Assembly (NCBI GenBank): GCA_017441765.1
Contig: JAFRVK010000030.1
Location: forward strand, 21,778 to 85,777
Reading direction: 5' to 3'
DNA from: Erysipelotrichaceae bacterium
Lineage (GTDB): Bacteria > Bacillota_I > Bacilli_A > Erysipelotrichales > Erysipelotrichaceae
DNA length: 64,000 nt
The notes beneath the pieces were generated by a model. The model did not search any database, had not been told where the DNA came from, and was given only the letters and a program-made list of their open reading frames with translations. The stretch's first letter is position 1, and the number at the start of each line of letters is the position of its first letter. Below, piece after piece: positions 1 through 33,874 of this stretch. The translations under genes were made by a program, and so were the position numbers.

Positions 1-2070
1 GATCAGTTCCCTGCTGATTTCCCTTACATCAATGAAGTCGAAGGCGATTCCTTGAAGAGAACTCCTGACAAGTATTTCGTTGATTACGGAACAGATATCA
101 AGTCCTTCATCAAGAATCAGCCGATCGCTCCGGAATTCACGAAGAAATGTCTGTCCAAGGTCATTGCGGAAGTCTTCGCAAGATACAAGACAGAAGGTTC
201 TTCCACTATTCTGGACTCGATCAAAGACTTAGGTTTCGAATATTCGACCGTTGCCGGCATGACGATCTCCCTGGCGGATATCAATGTCGCGCCGAACAAG
301 CAGAAGTATGTCGATGAAGCGAAATCCAAAGCCGATGTCCTGCAGACCCTGCTGAAACGTGGTCAGCTGACGCTCCCTGAATGGGAGAAACATTTCTCCA
401 AACTGTGGGCGGATACGACCAACGCCATCGGTGATGACGTCATGAACAACCTTCAGCGTAAATCCCCGATCAACATGTCAAGCGTTTCCGGAGCCCGTGG
501 TAACAAATCCAATATTACCCAGCTCTCCGGCATGCGTGGCCTGATGGGCAGACCGACCCAGTCCAAATCGAAGAAAGAGTATCAGCCTTCGATCATCGAG
601 GTCCCGATCTATTCTTCCTTCCGTGAAGGACTGAACGTATCTGAATTCTTTATCTCGACCCATGGCGTCCGTAAAGGTCTGACCGATACCGCTCTGAAGA
701 CAGCCGAATCAGGCTATCTGACCAGAAGACTGGTTGACGTCGCTCAGGATGTCATGATCATGCAGGAAGACTGCCAGACCCGCAAGGGCTACTATGTCGA
801 GGATATCATCGATCAGAAGGACAATTCCCGCATTGAGAGTTTCTATGACCGTATCGTCGGACGTTATTCCAAAGACGAACTTACCGATCCCAAGACCGGA
901 GAAGTCATCGTCGATCAGGACGAATTCATCGATGAAGCGATCGCGGAAAAGATCATCGCTGCCGGCTACAAGGGCATGAATATCCGTAACTCCTTCACCT
1001 GCGAATGCAAAGACGGCATCTGCCGGAAGTGCTATGGCCGCAATATGGCGACCGGCAAGCTGGTGGAAGCAGGCGAAGCGGTCGGTATCATGGCTGCGCA
1101 GTCCATCGGTGAACCTGGCACACAGCTGACCATGCGTACCTTCCACTCGGGTGGTGTCGCAAACGCTGATGATGATATCACCCAGGGTCTCCCGCGTGTC
1201 GAGGAACTGTTCGAAGCGCGCTGTCCGAAGCATCCTGCCGTTCTGGCCAAGATCAGTGGTTCCGTTACGGCAATCGAGGAAGCGGACGACCACTCCGTGA
1301 CGATCGACATCACGAACGATAAGGAAACCATCACTCATAAGCTGGGAATCTCTCAGACGATGAGAGACTGGATCAAAGTCGGTTCGGAAGTGCAGGCAGG
1401 CGACAAGCTGACCGAAGGCAACGTCAACCCGAAGGAACTGCTGGCGATTGCCGGTGTGAATGCGGTACAGAACTATATTCTGAAAGAAGTCAAGAAAGTC
1501 TATGCCGTCACAGGTATCGATATTTCCGACAAGCACGTCGAAGTCATCATCAAGCAGATGCTGAAGAAGATCATTATTACCGACGCCGGTGATTCTGATT
1601 ATTCTGTCGGTCAGACGATCTCCCAGAAGAAAGTGAATGAACTGAACAAGAAGCTGTTTGAAAAAGACAAGAACAGCAAGCTGATCGGTTTCGCGCCGCT
1701 GCTGCTGGGTATCTCGAAGTCATCAGTCGAGACCGATTCCTTCCTGTCGGCTGCAAGCTTCCAGGAAACGACCAAGGTCCTGACGGATGCTGCCGTCAAC
1801 GGCAAGACCGACGACCTCTTCGGAATCAAGGAGAATGTCATTATCGGCAAGCTGATTCCTGCCGGTACCGGTTCTCATTTCGAAAGAGAAACGACTTCTT
1901 TGATCGATCAGAGAGCAGCAGAGCTCGATGAGATCAGAGAGGAAAAGCTCCTTGCTGCACAGGAAGAAAAAGAAGCCGCTTTACCAAGCGAGCTGACCGG
2001 AGATCTTGATGAGATCTCGGGTATCGAACTTCAAGCATCAGCCGATCCGGTTGAAGAAGATCAGCAGTAA
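1..2070 (+). CDS. rpoC: DNA-directed RNA polymerase subunit beta' (C-terminal part; 5' end outside window)
   Basis: Frame 1 is open from nt 1 with no stop before the listed Met at 52. Beta' hallmarks are present: [28 protein letters not shown] and [27 protein letters not shown]. Acidic C-terminal tail. Confidence 0.95.
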
Positions 2071-2086
2071 GCAGTCTATCAGTCAA

Positions 2087-2125
2087 ATAAAATGGTCATC
2101 TCAGTGAGATGACCATTTTTCTTTT
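2087..2125. terminator. Bidirectional intrinsic terminator between convergent rpoC and the NlpC/P60 gene
   Basis: AATGGTCATCTC-agt-GAGATGACCATT 12-bp stem, flanked by an A-run upstream and TTTTTCTTTT downstream. Confidence 0.8.
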
Positions 2126-3521
2126 ACCACATTTCCGTGTAGTTTCCGTCTTCGAGATATTCTTCGTCCATCAGCATGAAGTACGTAAACGCATCATCCC
2201 CCAGTTCGTTGAAGGATCCGACGTTGCGTTCGTATCTTCTGACTTTCGTTCCGGTACGTATCGTATCGGCGATCCATATATAATCATCTTCGATTCCGAT
2301 CACGATTCCCACGTGTCCCGTAAAGCCGCATAGATCACCGCATCTGATCCGATCCGACTGCAGGAGCTCATCCGTAATACTGACCCTCTCTCCCAGCATG
2401 GACATGCCATACGATCCGGGACCGCCTGCTCCCATATCGCCGAAATCATATCCGGCATTGTAGTAGCACCATGAGACGAAGCCTCCGCAATCCAGTCCGT
2501 TCGGACGCTTCATCAGATAGAGGTTCGTACCGATATCAGAGACCACCAGTCCTCCATCGAGGTATTCTTCATCTCTGGAATGGTCTTCCGTCGTATCTTC
2601 CTTGAAGTATTGACCCCAGTATTTCGGACCCAGGATACTGGCAACGATATCTTCATATTTCTCTTCGCTGAGGTAGAAACCTTTGTGATAGTATCTTCCC
2701 TCGCCATCACTGCGGCGGGAATCGACAGTATTATCAAGCTTCCCCGTTTCCGCAAAGTAAGCCAGACGGTATGGAAACTGCAGGACCATGAAACGTGCGG
2801 CGGCAACGACGCCTGCCCTGGTATGATAGCCGGCTTCAGCGATCTTCATCTCCAGGACTTGATCCAGTTTCCTGTTCTGTTCATCATCGCAGATCGTTTC
2901 ATGCAGGATCGGTTTATTCATCGAATCGGTATCGATGAGCGTATAGAGATCGGTCACTTCGATCTCGACGCTGTCGCTGATCCCGTGGGAACTGACCGTA
3001 ATTGTTGCAGTGCCCGGAGAGCCGGTGATGATCTTCCCATCCTGTACCGATGCGACGCTTTCATCAGATGATGTGATTCTCAGTTCTTCATCATTGCCGA
3101 AAGTGAGCGTTTCATAGTTCAGTTTCAGTTGCTCGCCGACCGGATAGAAGGGATATTCAAATCCATCGACACGGATCGCCAGGGTGGAATTGATGATCGG
3201 TCCTGTATCGGCCGTTTTTCCCATCACGTCTTTCACATGGATATACCAGGTTCCCGGTTCGATGACATAGATCCTGTCAGGATCGTAGAGTTCATAAACG
3301 GTTCCATCATCGGACGCAGCTTCGCCATCGACAGCGACATCGTATCGACGCTTCAGGATGCTCTTGTCTATGATGCTGATGCGTACAGTCGCAGAGCGAT
3401 CATCATAGCTGAGCAGCTCGTAATCGATGTCGGGCTTGCTTAGAAGATTGAATAAAAAGAACAGGGACAGCCCTATCAGAACAAGCAGAATCAGCAGTAG
3501 AACGATCTTTCTTTTTTTCAT
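2124..3521 (-). CDS. Membrane-anchored cell-wall hydrolase: Big_2-like Ig domain plus C-terminal NlpC/P60 cysteine peptidase
   Basis: N-terminal signal anchor (IVLLLILLVLIGLSLFFLF). Big_2-like segment (ITSSDESVASVQDGKIITGSPGTATITVSS). NlpC/P60 Cys (GLDCGGFVSWCYYNAG) and His (GHVGIVIG) motifs. Confidence 0.75.
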   Translation of the reverse strand: MKKRKIVLLLILLVLIGLSLFFLFNLLSKPDIDYELLSYDDRSATVRISIIDKSILKRRYDVAVDGEAASDDGTVYELYDPDRIYVIEPGTWYIHVKDVMGKTADTGPIINSTLAIRVDGFEYPFYPVGEQLKLNYETLTFGNDEELRITSSDESVASVQDGKIITGSPGTATITVSSHGISDSVEIEVTDLYTLIDTDSMNKPILHETICDDEQNRKLDQVLEMKIAEAGYHTRAGVVAAARFMVLQFPYRLAYFAETGKLDNTVDSRRSDGEGRYYHKGFYLSEEKYEDIVASILGPKYWGQYFKEDTTEDHSRDEEYLDGGLVVSDIGTNLYLMKRPNGLDCGGFVSWCYYNAGYDFGDMGAGGPGSYGMSMLGERVSITDELLQSDRIRCGDLCGFTGHVGIVIGIEDDYIWIADTIRTGTKVRRYERNVGSFNELGDDAFTYFMLMDEEYLEDGNYTEMW

Positions 3522-3628
3522 AAACCTGAGATAAGTATAACATACTCACGATTCGTTTTATGGTACTATAGGTGAAGACGACCGTTGCATATGGGACGGT
3601 TTTGATTTATTTGTGTAAGGAGGACAAT

Positions 3629-5089
3629 ATGGGTTGCACGACGATACTTGTAGGCAAGAAAGCCAGCTATGACGGATCAACGATGATTGCGAGAAACGAC
3701 GATGGCCGTTTTGATGTGAAGAAACTGATCGTGGTCGATCCCAAGAAACAGGTCAGGCACTATAGAAGCAGGATCTCTCATCTCAAGATCGATCTGCCTG
3801 AGAATCCTATGCGTTATACTTCGACTCCAAGTGTCGATCCCAAGAACGGCATCTGGGCCGCGAACGGCATCAACGAGGCCAATGTCGGAATGACTGCTAC
3901 GGAAACGATCACTTCCAATCCGCTGGTACTGGGAGCGGATCCCTATGTCGTCTATAAGGAAAAGAAAGGCAGACAGAAGGAAGAGATCGGCGGGATCGGG
4001 GAAGAAGACCTGGTCGTGCTCGTGCTCCCATACATTCATAGTGCCAGAGAAGGCGTCCTTCGTCTGGGTTCCCTGCTGGAACAGTACGGGACCTATGAAC
4101 CCAACGGCATCGCTTTCAACGATGAAGAAGAGTGCTGGTGGCTTGAAACGATCGGCGGACATCACTGGATCGCCAGAAGAGTCAGAGACGACGAGTATGT
4201 CATGATGCCGAATCAGTTCGGCATGGATCGTTTCGATCTGAATGATGCATTCGGAGAACAGAAGGAACATCTTTGCAGCAAAGATCTCAGAGAATTCATC
4301 CGGGACAATCATCTGGATCTCAATCAGGACGGCATCTTCAATCCGCGTTATGTCTTCGGTTCGCATTCCGATGCCGATCATGTATACAACACGCCTCGCG
4401 CCTGGTTCATGGGCCGCTACTTCAATCCGAAAACCTACAGGTGGGATGGCGAGAACGCCGACTTCACACCGGAAAGCGATGATATCCCATGGTCCATGGT
4501 TCCGGAAAAGAAGATCACTGTGGAAGATATCAAGTATATCCTTTCTTCCTATTATCAGGGAACGCCATACAATCCTTACCAGAAAGCCGATGATCCGAAA
4601 AAAGGCATCTATCGTCCGATCGGCATCAGCCGTACAGGGGTCATGGCTGTCTTACAGATCAGAGGTTCTATGCCTGATCCTTTGAAAGGCGTGGAATGGG
4701 TCTGCTTCGGTGCCAATCCGTTCAATACGGTCGTACCGGTCTATGCGCAGGTCGGTAAGATGCCGAAGTATCTGAGCGATGTCACTTTGGATGTTTCGAC
4801 AGAGAATTTCTATTGGAGTTCCCGTCTGATCGGAGCATTGGCGGATCCGTATTTCGGTCCCATGATCCAGCACATCGAACGCTATCAGATGTCCGTCGCC
4901 TCCAAGGGACATAAGCTGATCAACGAGTATGATCAGAAGATGATGAAACAGAAGGATTATTCTCTGACGGAAGAAGCGAATGAAACGATCTGCAGGATGT
5001 GCAGAGAAGAAACGCTGAAAGCATTGGACAATGTCCTGCATGAAGCGAGCATGCAGATGAAATGCGGCTATTCCAGAGCAGACAACTGA
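3629..5089 (+). CDS. C69-family dipeptidase
   Basis: AAGGAGG SD sits 5 nt before ATG 3629. The product begins MGCTTILVGK, the N-terminal nucleophile Cys typical of peptidase C69. The track ORF starting at 3572 is an upstream extension lacking an SD. Confidence 0.85.
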   Translation: MGCTTILVGKKASYDGSTMIARNDDGRFDVKKLIVVDPKKQVRHYRSRISHLKIDLPENPMRYTSTPSVDPKNGIWAANGINEANVGMTATETITSNPLVLGADPYVVYKEKKGRQKEEIGGIGEEDLVVLVLPYIHSAREGVLRLGSLLEQYGTYEPNGIAFNDEEECWWLETIGGHHWIARRVRDDEYVMMPNQFGMDRFDLNDAFGEQKEHLCSKDLREFIRDNHLDLNQDGIFNPRYVFGSHSDADHVYNTPRAWFMGRYFNPKTYRWDGENADFTPESDDIPWSMVPEKKITVEDIKYILSSYYQGTPYNPYQKADDPKKGIYRPIGISRTGVMAVLQIRGSMPDPLKGVEWVCFGANPFNTVVPVYAQVGKMPKYLSDVTLDVSTENFYWSSRLIGALADPYFGPMIQHIERYQMSVASKGHKLINEYDQKMMKQKDYSLTEEANETICRMCREETLKALDNVLHEASMQMKCGYSRADN

Positions 5090-30921: not shown

Positions 30922-30926
30922 AAATA

Positions 30927-30962
30927 CAAAAAAAGTCATGAGCACATCTGTTCATGACTTTT
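30927..30962 (-). terminator. Intrinsic terminator of the Hsp70-like operon
   Basis: On the minus strand, AAGTCATGA-(10 nt)-TCATGACTT is followed by TTTTTTT. Confidence 0.7.
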
Positions 30963-30984
30963 GATCTATCCTGTTATAACGAAA

Positions 30985-32904
30985 TCATCCCAACGGAATC
31001 TCTACGACCTCTGCCATCTTGGCAAGACAGCTTTCGATCTGGACAGAGATCTCTTTCGCCAGACGCTGACTGATCTCCTGGCTCTTCTCCTGTTCCAGCT
31101 TTTCATAGAGATTGTCTTTGACCTGTTTGGAAATGTAGTCGATCCTGGCTTTCAGATAGCTTTTCGGAATGACTTTCCTGACAGGATTCGGAATATTGGA
31201 ATTGAGAAGCATCTCCTGCATCTTGTCCTTGCCCAATGCCAGGATCAGCAGCGATACCACGGCGCCTGCAACGATACCGGGCAGGCCGTTGGCGATCAGC
31301 GCGATTCCTCCTCCTCCGCAGAGAAGACCTACAACGATGGAGATCGTTGCATCGATCAGCCAGGTGATCTCTTTGACCGCAAACAGATTCTTCGCTTCGA
31401 CATTGATCTCGATATCACTCATCGACAGGAAGGAATTCAGAGACAGAGAAGAATACGGTACGTTGTGTCTCACACAGATCGGCATCGTATGTTCCTCAAG
31501 TTCAAAGGAGACGGTCTTCAGCCACTTGGCGACAGGCCGCATCAGCAGTGCTCTTGCTTCGTTGGTATGCAGCCAGGTATCGATCTCCGACTGCATGACA
31601 GGGTCGATGTCTGAGAGCTTCTCGATCTCGCCATTGCGCCATCTCTCACTGATCGGCAGAGCGACATGTTCCAGGATCGGTTCCACCATCGTCTCTACCG
31701 CATCGTGATAGAGTTCGCTGATATGTTTCTCAACGATCTGCTCTACCGTACTGGAATCGATGAGGGCGCTGACTTCTTCTCTGAATCCTTTCAGTTCATC
31801 ATCGATCTTGCCGCACCATGCCAGACCGGAAGCGACAGAGAATTCCGGTTCCGCGCAGGTGATGACCACGGAGTTTTCAAACACCTCCTGGCACCAGCTG
31901 CGGATGATCGCCATCTTGGAGACTCCTCCGGTCAGAAAGACCAGTTCAGGCTGTTTTTCCTTGATGGAAGATTTCGCCTGGATCAGGCTTTCCATAAAGA
32001 CTTCCTTGAAGGATCTGTCGGACAGCCGTTCGACTTTCCGGTTCAGCAGCTGGTCTGCGATCTTCGGGTCGATCTTCAGTATCAGTTTTACCGGAATCAG
32101 ACCCTGGCGGATGGATACGGACTGGCTGCATTCGTTCCTGCTCCAGTATTCTTCATCGGAGAAATATTTTTCTTTCAGTCTTCTTGCGGCAAAATCGCAG
32201 TAGCTTCGCCATGCTTCGCTTTCTTCGAAGATCTTGCGGATCTTGCTTTCATTCGGCGACGCTTTCAGGGATTCTTCCAGCAGGATCTCATCCATCACGC
32301 CGCCGCCCAGGAAGACTTCTCCACCTGTCTTGAGTTCCACTTCTTTTCCGCCCATGAGATAGGCAAAGTCGGTCGTGGAAGAACCGATATCGATGACCAG
32401 GACCGGCTTGTTGAGGATATCGTAACCGACCTGAAGATGCTTGGACTGGCAAGCGGATACCAGGGCGGCTCTGGATTCGGAGATGATCTTCACCGGAGGA
32501 TATCCCGTCTTCTCAAAGATGCTGCGGTATTCTTCGCGGGCGATCTTGTCCCAGCCTGCCGGACAGCCGATATAGAAGCAGCAGTCGTCTCCCTTGATCA
32601 CATCGCCATTCAGATACAGCTCTCCCAGTACGCCTGAGGCAAAGCTTTTCACATCCTTGGCTGCTTCAGGATCAGTCAGGAAACGGCTTTTGAACCGTTC
32701 CTTCCTTTTCGTCGCGTCCGGCGCGTAGCAGGCACCTTCGCCGATCAGAAGCTTTCCGTCCCGAAGCAGGGCATAGGCCGTAATAAAACTCCTGGCTTCA
32801 TTGATCTGAAGCACGACAGGTGTCAGATCTTTTGTCTTATCAAACCGGGTGACTGCACTTTCCGCATCACCCAAATCAAACCCATAAAAGCGATCCATAG
32901 TCAT
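30985..32904 (-). CDS. Hsp70/actin-fold (ASKHA) ATPase with C-terminal helical region containing a hydrophobic membrane hairpin; no Hsp70 substrate-binding domain
   Basis: Motifs occur in order: FDLGDAES, ISESRAALVS, VIDIGSSTTDF, LGGGVMDE, FLTGGVSKM, EPEFSVASGLAW. Hydrophobic stretch IVVGLLCGGGGIALIANGLPGIVAGAVVSLLILALG. ATGA overlap with the upstream gene. Alternative start ATG at 32898 has better AGGAG spacing. Confidence 0.8.
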   Translation of the reverse strand: MTMDRFYGFDLGDAESAVTRFDKTKDLTPVVLQINEARSFITAYALLRDGKLLIGEGACYAPDATKRKERFKSRFLTDPEAAKDVKSFASGVLGELYLNGDVIKGDDCCFYIGCPAGWDKIAREEYRSIFEKTGYPPVKIISESRAALVSACQSKHLQVGYDILNKPVLVIDIGSSTTDFAYLMGGKEVELKTGGEVFLGGGVMDEILLEESLKASPNESKIRKIFEESEAWRSYCDFAARRLKEKYFSDEEYWSRNECSQSVSIRQGLIPVKLILKIDPKIADQLLNRKVERLSDRSFKEVFMESLIQAKSSIKEKQPELVFLTGGVSKMAIIRSWCQEVFENSVVITCAEPEFSVASGLAWCGKIDDELKGFREEVSALIDSSTVEQIVEKHISELYHDAVETMVEPILEHVALPISERWRNGEIEKLSDIDPVMQSEIDTWLHTNEARALLMRPVAKWLKTVSFELEEHTMPICVRHNVPYSSLSLNSFLSMSDIEINVEAKNLFAVKEITWLIDATISIVVGLLCGGGGIALIANGLPGIVAGAVVSLLILALGKDKMQEMLLNSNIPNPVRKVIPKSYLKARIDYISKQVKDNLYEKLEQEKSQEISQRLAKEISVQIESCLAKMAEVVEIPLG

Positions 32905-33773
32905 TCTCCTGCCGCCAGGCCTTTGCGCAGTACGCTGCCTGCGATCACCAGAGCGGGTCGTATCGTTCCCGGACTTTCCGAAGGCATCAGTTCAAAGAAG
33001 TCCCGATTGCTTCCGTCATAATCCACAACATCGATATTCTTGCGGTGCAGATAGAATTTCAGTTCGGAAACAATCTGCTTGCCGTATTCGTTGTTTTCGC
33101 CATATGCGGATTCCAGAAGATCGGAAAGAAGCTGCAGATCTTCCTTTTTCAGACTGTCTTTTTCTTCCAGAAGCGCTTTCTTCTCTTCCAGCAGTTCTTC
33201 ATTCCTGATCTGTTCCAGGATCCGATCCATCGTCAGCACGCTGTTGAGAAGGATGTGATATGTTTTTTCTCCATCGGGGATCGTTTCGGCATAGAGTTCC
33301 TGCTTGTTTTCTTCCTTCTTTCTGGCGGAAAAGATACCGGAAAGGAAGAGGAAGAACGCCGCAGCTGCCGCAGCTGCCAGCCCGATGATCATCTCGTTGC
33401 TCGGCGGGATGGAATCGGTCAGATAGACCAGTTCCGCACCTGCTCCGGCAAGAGCCAGGATGCCAAGAAACAGGAATATCCCGAACCACGCTGATTTTTT
33501 CGGCTTGCTGATACCGGGACGGTACTGCGATTTCGACCAGATGGTCGATTCTCCGTCGCAGTTCAAAAAACCGGCAGAAGAAGTCAGCGATTCGATCAGA
33601 AACACCGCGGTATTCCTGATGCGTTCGTTTTCTTCTTTTTCATTGTACGCGGACAGGATACGGCTGAACTGTTCTTCTACGGTCGCAACCGATTCTGCCG
33701 ACGATTTTGCGGCTGCCATATTATTCAGAAAACGTTCTTTGTCTTTTTCAAGAAGTGCCTGCATCGTTGCCAT
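32901..33773 (-). CDS. 2-TM membrane protein with coiled coil and GrpE-like C-terminal region (tentative)
   Basis: AGGAGG SD. TM helices WFGIFLFLGILALAGAGA and IIGLAAAAAAAFFLFLSGIF. The C-terminus LLSDLLESAY...VVDYDGSNRDFFELM...PGTIRPALV...VLRKGLA follows the GrpE C-terminal pattern by eye. Confidence 0.65.
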   Translation of the reverse strand: MATMQALLEKDKERFLNNMAAAKSSAESVATVEEQFSRILSAYNEKEENERIRNTAVFLIESLTSSAGFLNCDGESTIWSKSQYRPGISKPKKSAWFGIFLFLGILALAGAGAELVYLTDSIPPSNEMIIGLAAAAAAAFFLFLSGIFSARKKEENKQELYAETIPDGEKTYHILLNSVLTMDRILEQIRNEELLEEKKALLEEKDSLKKEDLQLLSDLLESAYGENNEYGKQIVSELKFYLHRKNIDVVDYDGSNRDFFELMPSESPGTIRPALVIAGSVLRKGLAAGE

Positions 33774-33797
33774 AAAGCTACTCCTCCTATTAATTGC

Positions 33798-33806
33798 ATT
33801 CTAGCA
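33798..33806 (-). promoter_or_regulatory. Extended -10 (TGcTAGAAT) for the Hsp70-like operon
   Basis: The minus strand reads TGCTAGAAT about 24 nt upstream of the AGGAGG-ATG of the 290-aa gene. Confidence 0.45.
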
Positions 33807-33835
33807 TAAACTCGTTCAGTTCTCATCTTGCAGGG

Positions 33836-33866
33836 ATAAAAAAAGATCCTCGTTTTGAGGATCTTC
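33836..33866 (-). terminator. Intrinsic terminator of rpsD
   Basis: On the minus strand, AAGATCCTC-aaaac-GAGGATCTT is followed by TTTTTTTAT. Confidence 0.8.
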
Positions 33867-33874
33867 CGGTCTCA

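Follow-up and report, generated by a model that had tools for sequence, protein, structure and literature searches.

A divergent Hsp70-fold ATPase with a hydrophobic hairpin and its two-transmembrane partner: a two-gene cassette and possible conflict module

In a stretch of 64,000 nucleotides from the genome of an Erysipelotrichaceae bacterium (assembly GCA_017441765.1, contig JAFRVK010000030.1, positions 21,778 to 85,777 of the forward strand; hereafter the window), two overlapping genes on the minus strand encode an Hsp70-fold ATPase of 639 amino acids (aa; 30985-32904) and a membrane-protein partner of 290 aa (32901-33773). Few molecular machines are as well studied as the Hsp70 ATPases; in the branch described here, a membrane hairpin has replaced the peptide-binding domain, and the ATPase is paired with a membrane protein lacking a known fold. 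We tentatively read the pair as a self-contained, mobile, membrane-embedded ATPase module that would act as a conflict (anti-phage or abortive-infection) system rather than as a housekeeping chaperone. A role in cell defence is suggested by relatives of the ATPase that are fused to immune domains (TIR, caspase), and the reading is the most economical one because the ATPase has no client-binding domain, its hairpin is conserved, the linked partner evolves faster, the cassette appears mobile and patchily distributed, and fusion or linkage to TIR, caspase-CHAT and HerA recurs within the family.

Results

The ATPase carries a complete Hsp70-type nucleotide-binding domain

Residues 1-366 of the ATPase (31807-32904, minus strand) make up an Hsp70-type nucleotide-binding domain (NBD), as delimited by Pfam and by a profile search against the PDB. 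The Pfam HSP70 model scores 28.4 bits over residues 112-367 (gathering score 20.6), and a family profile built from 34 diverse members aligns over its positions 5-364 to DnaK 7-361 with E = 8e-17, the best 60 PDB matches all being Hsp70s (NBDs of DnaK, BiP and Hsc70). An earlier note on this DNA, made by a model from the letters alone, had expected such a domain over about residues 1-390 and had quoted a series of ASKHA/Hsp70 motifs, every one of which is located in the order given: FDLGDAES (residues 9-16), ISESRAALVS (141-150), VIDIGSSTTDF (170-180), LGGGVMDE (199-206), FLTGGVSKM (323-331) and EPEFSVASGLAW (352-363).

Conserved residues of the domain include D10, G12, E15, F71-K72, E143, D172, G174, T177 and G326; D10, E143, D172 and T177, together with the glycines of the adenosine motif, are invariant or nearly so in the family. 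F71-K72 aligns with the lysine of the DnaK SIKRLMG motif, which we take to be the catalytic K70 of DnaK, so that K72 is equated with K70. From this conserved Hsp70 catalytic set we infer that the protein is very probably an active Hsp70-type enzyme, in which ATP binding and hydrolysis would serve as a conformational switch.

The match is to the Hsp70 fold and not to any curated subfamily: the NCBIfam equivalogs for DnaK, HscA and YegD reach best scores of 19-26 bits against cut-offs of 331-1002. Among actin-family models, those of Pfam stay below cut-off on the ATPase (MreB_Mbl, 21.7 against 27; FtsA, 13.9 against 31.8), and mreB, ftsA, MamK, BeeR and PRTRC_D of NCBIfam give weak matches only. 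A reassignment to a well-characterised ASKHA family such as MreB or FtsA, considered in the earlier note, is therefore not seen, since these scores all fall below curated cut-offs that HSP70 passes.

A helical domain with a conserved hydrophobic hairpin stands in place of the substrate-binding domain

The C-terminal domain of the ATPase (residues 367-639; 30988-31806, minus strand) is helical and contains the invariant residues W422 and R576. No Hsp70 substrate-binding domain (SBD) was found in it: the Pfam HSP70 match extends no further than profile position 374 of 599, and profile searches with the C-terminal 273 residues gave no significant match in PDB or Pfam. The domain contains a Gly/Ala-rich hydrophobic helical hairpin, IVVGLLCGGGGIALIANGLPGIVAGAVVSLLILALG (residues 523-558; 31231-31338, minus strand). 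Kyte-Doolittle analysis places two hydrophobic segments at residues 513-537 and 540-558 (peaks 2.13 and 2.21), and a comparable peak is kept in 113 of 117 full-length representatives of the family. The missing SBD and the helical region with its hairpin had both been read from the window sequence beforehand, and both descriptions stand.

MtrR, HtpG and the colicins were considered as relatives of this domain and rejected, all matches having E > 0.01. Pore-forming colicins are the only non-trivial sub-threshold PDB matches to it, through the H8-H9 hairpin of colicins A, B and S4 (E = 0.39, 0.67 and 2.6). The order of elements in the segment at 31231-31338 (helix, G..ALI..G.PG turn, helix, G+) is akin to H8-H9 of colicins A and B (E = 0.39 and 0.67). 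This likeness is probably one of composition rather than of homology, and is used here as a lead only.

The two genes are inherited together across distant bacteria

The ATPase belongs to a large family, with 1282 clusters (50% identity) at E <= 1e-3 and 324 at E <= 1e-30, most of them comprising proteins of 630-660 aa that align end to end. On contigs representing one genome per species, at least 535 relatives are encoded among the 600 pattern matches listed, and the family is present in several hundred species genomes. Its distribution is patchy, covering rumen Firmicutes, filamentous cyanobacteria, Saprospiraceae and, as named relatives, Achromatium, Beggiatoa and Streptomyces.

Outside the fused branches described below, the partner gene is strictly linked to that of the ATPase. 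In a set of Firmicutes loci made of the best 80 relatives, all from rumen or gut isolates or metagenome-assembled genomes (MAGs), 79 have a partner homologue immediately 5' of the ATPase gene in the same orientation, the exception being cut by the end of its contig. The same arrangement is found in 6/6 distant non-fused loci, namely the chromosomes of Allocoleopsis and Fischerella, two metagenomic lineages with an ATPase of 1083-1099 aa, another metagenomic lineage and a Calothrix plasmid, and the co-occurrence of the two families on which the earlier note had made its reading depend is thus well established. Over 71 pairs, the identity of the partner to its counterpart in the window tracks that of the ATPase (r = 0.95) and drops at about twice the rate (for example, 35% identity where the ATPase has 65%).

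A third conserved gene, such as one for a J-domain protein, a GTPase or an effector, is not found among the 366 neighbours, which fall into 274 clusters. In keeping with the earlier observation that no J-domain gene is adjacent, none lies in the operon and none recurs among these neighbours; a J-protein elsewhere in the genome is possible.

The pair appears to move as a cassette

At the DNA level, the window resembles the four closest loci (79-84% identity) only from position 30984 to positions 33806-33814, i.e., the two genes and the promoter region without any flanking gene; because the similarity reaches 33806-33814, the promoter region travels with the genes. In none of the 80 Firmicutes loci is the pair accompanied by rpsD, ezrA or the ABC importer, its neighbours in the window. 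Flanks are shared within small groups of loci, so that the cassette is stable within lineages and its position varies between them. The ATPase is 57-67% identical across Firmicutes MAGs labelled Erysipelotrichaceae, Lachnospiraceae, Oscillospiraceae and Christensenellales, which suggests either exchange within the shared habitat or mislabelled bins. From their genomic distribution, the two genes thus appear to behave as a mobile unit.

No insertion footprint was detected at the operon, which has neither flanking direct or inverted repeats nor an anomaly in guanine-cytosine (GC) content, and a search for exact rpsD matches that might reveal presence/absence polymorphism returned two short contigs only. 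The only plasmid copy found is on plasmid2 of Calothrix brevissima NIES-22 (AP018209.1; locus L096, 6997-9902), a conjugative plasmid on which the pair lies between two genes of the phage-integrase family; its partner is truncated to 268 aa and lacks the conserved C-terminal motifs. At one further locus (L044, 1853-3799) the ATPase is split into two open reading frames (ORFs), 1853-3361 and 3383-3799, which may reflect a frameshift, a pseudogene or an assembly error.

Sister branches are fused or linked to immune effectors

Fused members of the family were drawn from the 150 best ATPase clusters, and align to the window protein over its residues ~6-630, so that NBD, helical domain and hairpin are all retained. 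Their sources include Saprospiraceae and Nostoc, the latter with WP_322686368.1 as an example of a TIR-fused homologue. All nine representatives with an N-terminal extension of ~146 aa carry a TIR_2 domain there (E = 1e-19 to 1e-30), and the same glutamate column is aligned in all nine, which we take to be the TIR catalytic position; the fused TIR domain also scores against the TIR models of PADLOC. One further member, of 1195 aa, carries Peptidase_C14 and CHAT. A partner homologue is present within 7 kb in 0/3 fused loci, as opposed to 6/6 non-fused distant loci.

Immune or mobile-element genes surround the three fused loci. In Nostoc sp. DedQUE07 (locus L179, 4936-9340), the TIR-fused member (779 aa) lies beside a divergent ThsB_TIR gene, together with genes for a 183-aa protein with a weak TIR_2 match (E = 4e-4) and for a 154-aa protein with multiple transmembrane (TM) segments and no family, and the whole looks like a small TIR-rich immune cluster. 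The caspase- and CHAT-fused member (locus L181, 6536-10588) adjoins a gene with a Trypco1 domain, and genes for a TrwC relaxase and a ParA-like protein are close by; this locus probably lies on a plasmid or integrative element. The third fused locus has an IS21 IstB gene and a primase gene nearby.

A long branch represented by two metagenomic loci (L085, 6061-14133; L089, 2085-11772) has kept the partner. Its ATPases (1083-1099 aa) bear ~430 aa of N-terminal sequence without an assigned family, and are followed on their 3' side by a gene for a HerA-like ATPase of 910-937 aa and by small genes without a family, accompanied in L089 by an E1-like ThiF gene and a weak metallopeptidase match. In the partners of both loci, a glycine-zipper-like stretch takes the place of the TM region. 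Taking fusion or linkage to immune effectors within the family as the operational criterion of a conflict system, such associations were found for TIR_2, Peptidase_C14 with CHAT, ThsB_TIR, Trypco1 and HerA-like proteins.

A separate set of genes surrounds the pair of Allocoleopsis franciscana (locus L081, 172-17923), where a GT4-conflict glycosyltransferase, a DUF4007 gene and a transposase occur within 8 kb. Also encoded there are a fragment of 190 aa that resembles HSP70/MreB and a Peptidase_C14 protein of 843 aa.

The partner is a two-TM protein without a known family

The partner has no Pfam, NCBIfam or PADLOC family; one homologue is labelled 'YrzE family protein' in its source, a name that may derive from the TM region only. 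An AlphaFold2 model of the full protein (predicted local distance difference test, pLDDT, 80) contains, in order, an N-terminal helical domain (1-94), a strand, two TM helices, a second strand, a helix of 39 residues, two short helices and 5-6 short strands. The TM hairpin comprises residues 96-118 and 128-150, joined by the short loop DSIPPSNE (33324-33488, minus strand). Kyte-Doolittle segments (98-116 and 129-147; peaks 2.1 and 2.33) and the modelled helices (95-117 and 126-149) agree on the two central TM helices that had been proposed for this protein. In the predicted topology the two termini share one side of the membrane.

Conservation within the partner is highest at its C-terminus, with the motifs LLxxLLE, F[DE]xxP and T[IV]xPAL..G..L+KG. 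This C-terminal domain (residues 207-290; 32904-33155, minus strand), consisting of two helices and short strands, is the 'GrpE-like tail' of the earlier note, whose claim of GrpE likeness is not supported. At E <= 10, PF01025 matches neither the partner, nor its C-terminal fragment, nor four distant homologues, although the five GrpE sequences used as controls were verified by the same database at 98-178 bits; a partner profile run against PDB sequences recovered no GrpE. When an alignment of 103 partner sequences was compared by hhalign with the five GrpEs, the result was 14.7% probability over 11 columns, and 12.5% over 21 columns when compared with an 85-sequence GrpE profile to which 80 metagenomic GrpEs had been added. 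The raw score of 24-26 does exceed that of column-permuted decoys (mean 10.8, standard deviation 1.7, maximum 17.2) by ~8 standard deviations, and under relaxed settings the alignment runs collinear with GrpE; one or two short motifs account for this signal.

Structural comparison adds no GrpE match. Foldseek against PDB returned no GrpE among the best 50 of 204 matches for the full model, and 44 matches for a separate model of residues 160-290 (pLDDT 75), all with E > 2 and none of them GrpE; because the beta part of this model has a pLDDT of only 55-75, this negative from the fold comparison is not a firm one. With Pfam, PDB profile, hhalign and Foldseek searches all short of significance, GrpE homology was rejected as unproven. 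The partner is not demonstrably a GrpE, and what is left is the order of its elements and a weak collinear pattern of motifs.

The genes form a self-contained operon between housekeeping genes

The two genes constitute a real, self-contained operon. Both ORFs are real genes, as both products have many homologues, and the 290- and 639-aa frames proposed earlier were recovered with their ATGA overlap (32901-32904), through which the partner is translationally coupled to the ATPase. A Shine-Dalgarno sequence AGGAGG (33783-33788, minus strand), read directly from the sequence, lies 9 nt 5' of the partner ATG. Upstream of it is a promoter-like site (33798-33826, minus strand) with a -35 element ATGAGA (33826-33821), a 17-nt spacer and an extended -10 element TGcTAGAAT (33806-33798); it has 9/12 consensus matches with the TG present, and is weak on its own because comparable sites are about equally frequent in shuffled sequence. 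The extended -10 and the AGGAGG of the earlier note are therefore both in place, the former being poor evidence by itself.

On the 3' side of the ATPase gene, a hairpin followed by a T-run (30924-30962, minus strand) resembles an intrinsic terminator. It folds at -15.8 kcal/mol (z = -4.1), none of 200 shuffles is equally stable, and it is also recovered as an inverted repeat, which bears out the terminator assigned to the operon beforehand. The gene just upstream of the operon, rpsD, has its own terminator, a hairpin and T-run at ~33838-33867 (-16.4 kcal/mol), and with its own promoter-like site, Shine-Dalgarno sequence and terminator the operon stands alone, as had been supposed. Pfam likewise bears out the position given for it between an ABC importer and the rpsD/ezrA block, with SBP_bac_8, ABC_tran+TOBE_2 and a double BPD_transp_1 permease on one side, and Ribosomal_S4, EzrA and Aminotran_5 (a class-V aminotransferase) on the other.

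Discussion

If the pair is a conflict system, the ATPase and the partner would form a membrane complex. Either the fast-evolving partner or the helical domain would detect a trigger, upon which the ATPase would change its nucleotide state. This change could cause the hydrophobic hairpins and/or the TM or glycine-zipper segment of the partner to rearrange or oligomerise, whereupon the membrane would be depolarised or permeabilised and the infected cell would stop growing. The output would be the fused enzyme in the fused branches, or, in the coupled form, a lesion that the hairpins and/or the partner inflict on the membrane. Because sister branches fuse the same core to TIR or caspase-CHAT and lack the partner, the data suggest that the ATPase-plus-hairpin core is an activation or assembly platform, to which either the partner or a fused effector has been added. 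The more far-reaching proposal, an undescribed and widespread family of membrane Hsp70-fold immune ATPases, either partner-coupled or effector-fused, in which a colicin-like hairpin and/or a partner segment kills or arrests infected cells, is doubtful.

Several observations weigh against a conflict role for the operon of the window. An immune function has to be transferred by inference to this branch from branches that are fused and partner-less. No defence-island signal was found in the Firmicutes branch among 147 neighbour ORFs from 54 loci (crude gene calls, raw counts), where single defence matches concern Cas12f/TnpB-like, Csx1, HEC-05 and HerA proteins and most neighbours belong to transport and metabolism (ABC transporters, MatE, GNAT, hydrolases). 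The flanks in the window are of the housekeeping type and its GC content is unremarkable, no match indicating a phage origin was found in a phage collection or in viral contigs, and the conservation of the ATPase (about 60-67% identity across Firmicutes classes) is unusually high for an immune gene. The models of PADLOC-DB 2.0 give chance-level matches only for both proteins (Csn2, 0.034; LeoBC, 0.0049). A known defence system was accordingly rejected as an identity for the pair, neither protein having a PADLOC match above chance.

The high conservation of the ATPase over its full length and the housekeeping-type contexts of the Firmicutes loci would be easier to understand if the ATPase were a chaperone or remodeller anchored in the membrane by its hairpin, acting on membrane proteins or on the bilayer, with the partner regulating the nucleotide cycle, possibly as a divergent GrpE-like exchange factor. 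Such an assignment would also fit an NBD that is closest to true Hsp70s with the full catalytic set, and a partner whose C-terminal part has its elements in the same order as GrpE and is collinear with GrpE in hhalign for LLxxLLE, the YLHRKNIDVVDY segment and the terminal strands (raw score 24-26 against 10.8 for decoys, standard deviation 1.7). However, none of the GrpE tests of the partner (PF01025, hhalign, Foldseek) reached significance, there is neither a substrate-binding domain nor a J-domain partner gene, and the patchy distribution and variable position are unlike those of a core proteostasis factor. As a chaperone function would moreover leave the TIR and caspase fusions, and the lack of the partner in those branches, unexplained, we consider it less likely than the conflict reading, of which it is nevertheless the main competitor. 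Of the two roles put forward in the earlier note, that of a conflict or abortive-infection module has thus gained support from the TIR and caspase fusions in the family, and that of a chaperone with an exchange factor has lost the GrpE likeness as its main argument.

A membrane-tethered, actin-like cytomotive filament in the manner of FtsA, MreB or MamK, with the partner as a membrane adaptor like PilN for PilM and a function in cell shape, division or positioning, is more improbable still. It would account for the weak matches to MreB_Mbl, FtsA, ParM-like PRTRC_D, BeeR and MamK models, for relatives whose source names refer to ParM, rod shape or FtsA, for the enrichment of the family in filamentous or very large bacteria, and for the proximity of the window ATPase gene to ezrA. 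However, the actin-family scores are all below curated cut-offs where HSP70 is above its own, the best 60 PDB matches are without exception Hsp70s, and F71-K72 aligns with the SIKRLMG lysine of DnaK, which we presume to be the catalytic K70. Linkage to ezrA is found in 0/80 loci, and the sporadic distribution and mobility of the cassette also speak against a filament. The probability left over by the conflict, chaperone and filament explanations goes to one outside all three.

Neither curated families nor the publications found cover the ATPase-partner pair, and the family is found in groups of ecological importance: rumen Firmicutes, filamentous cyanobacteria, giant sulfur bacteria and Streptomyces. 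Should the conflict reading hold, the pair would represent a new type of switch in bacterial immunity, re-using the fold of a chaperone ATPase, and would offer a simple two-gene system in which to follow how an Hsp70-fold ATPase drives membrane events. Should it instead be a chaperone, it would provide the first example of a membrane-integral Hsp70 served by a dedicated cofactor.

Comparison with known systems

The ATPase shares with Hsp70/DnaK the order of its motifs: GFDLGxGES corresponds to the phosphate-1 motif, ESRAA to NEPTAAA, DIGSSTTD to DLGGGTFD, LTGGxSRM to LVGGSTR and EPExxIAxGLA to NPDEAVAxGAA. Unlike Hsp70/DnaK, it lacks the hydrophobic interdomain linker, the beta-sandwich SBD and the lid, and has instead ~270 aa of helices with a membrane hairpin. 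The partner resembles GrpE in having a long helix, two short helices and short strands in this order, and in weak collinear matches of LLxxLLE to LLPVLDxLERA, of L+KxGIxVV to LxKxGVExI and of its terminal ...LRKG / TIRPALV to the ...RVLRPAxV of GrpE; it differs by a 160-aa N-terminal part bearing two TM helices, which GrpE does not have. The hairpin of the ATPase recalls the pore-forming colicins A, B and S4, with ~40 residues forming an Ala/Gly-rich helix, a tight turn and a second helix between amphipathic helices on either side, whereas the colicin domain is a module of secreted toxins, not fused to an ATPase, and the likeness is below significance.

An actin- or Hsp70-fold ATPase at the membrane, paired with the product of an adjacent short membrane-protein gene, is also known from PilM-PilN and from FtsA with its anchor. 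The pair differs from these in the affinity of the ATPase profile to Hsp70 and in the lack of linked pilus or divisome genes. With single-protein TIR effectors and Thoeris-type TIR systems it is connected through its sister branches, which carry an N-terminal TIR and adjoin ThsB_TIR genes, whereas the window ATPase has no TIR. No Hsp70-fold ATPase is mentioned for the Thoeris types in a preprint on TIR systems (10.64898/2025.12.03.692087), and neither this preprint nor the NAR 2026 defence-system screen mentions Hsp70, DnaK or a chaperone; a published description of the ATPase-partner pair was not found by full-text searches of the literature.

Closest in concept are two groups of predicted immune systems with Hsp70 components, the CoCoNuT type III systems, in which Hsp70-like CnuD/CnuCD were predicted (PMC11090510), and the DO-GTPase GAP1-N2 conflict systems, in which HSP70 was predicted together with GrpE and DnaJ (Kaur et al. 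2020, PMC7159879). Common to these and to the present family are a divergent Hsp70-fold ATPase in a predicted immune setting and links to TIR, caspase and Trypco effectors. However, both are multi-gene systems that need McrB-like GTPases or a DO-GTPase with GAP1 and keep the NBD/SBD unit, while the operon of the window has neither a GTPase nor an SBD, and has a membrane hairpin and a dedicated two-TM partner instead. Membership in the DO-GTPase/GAP1 systems is not indicated, such genes being absent from the flanks in the window and no GTPase family recurring among the neighbours. What the operon shares with these systems is probably the recruitment of a divergent Hsp70-fold ATPase into a module related to conflict, here a stand-alone one, and there is a fair chance that it deserves the name of a new system.

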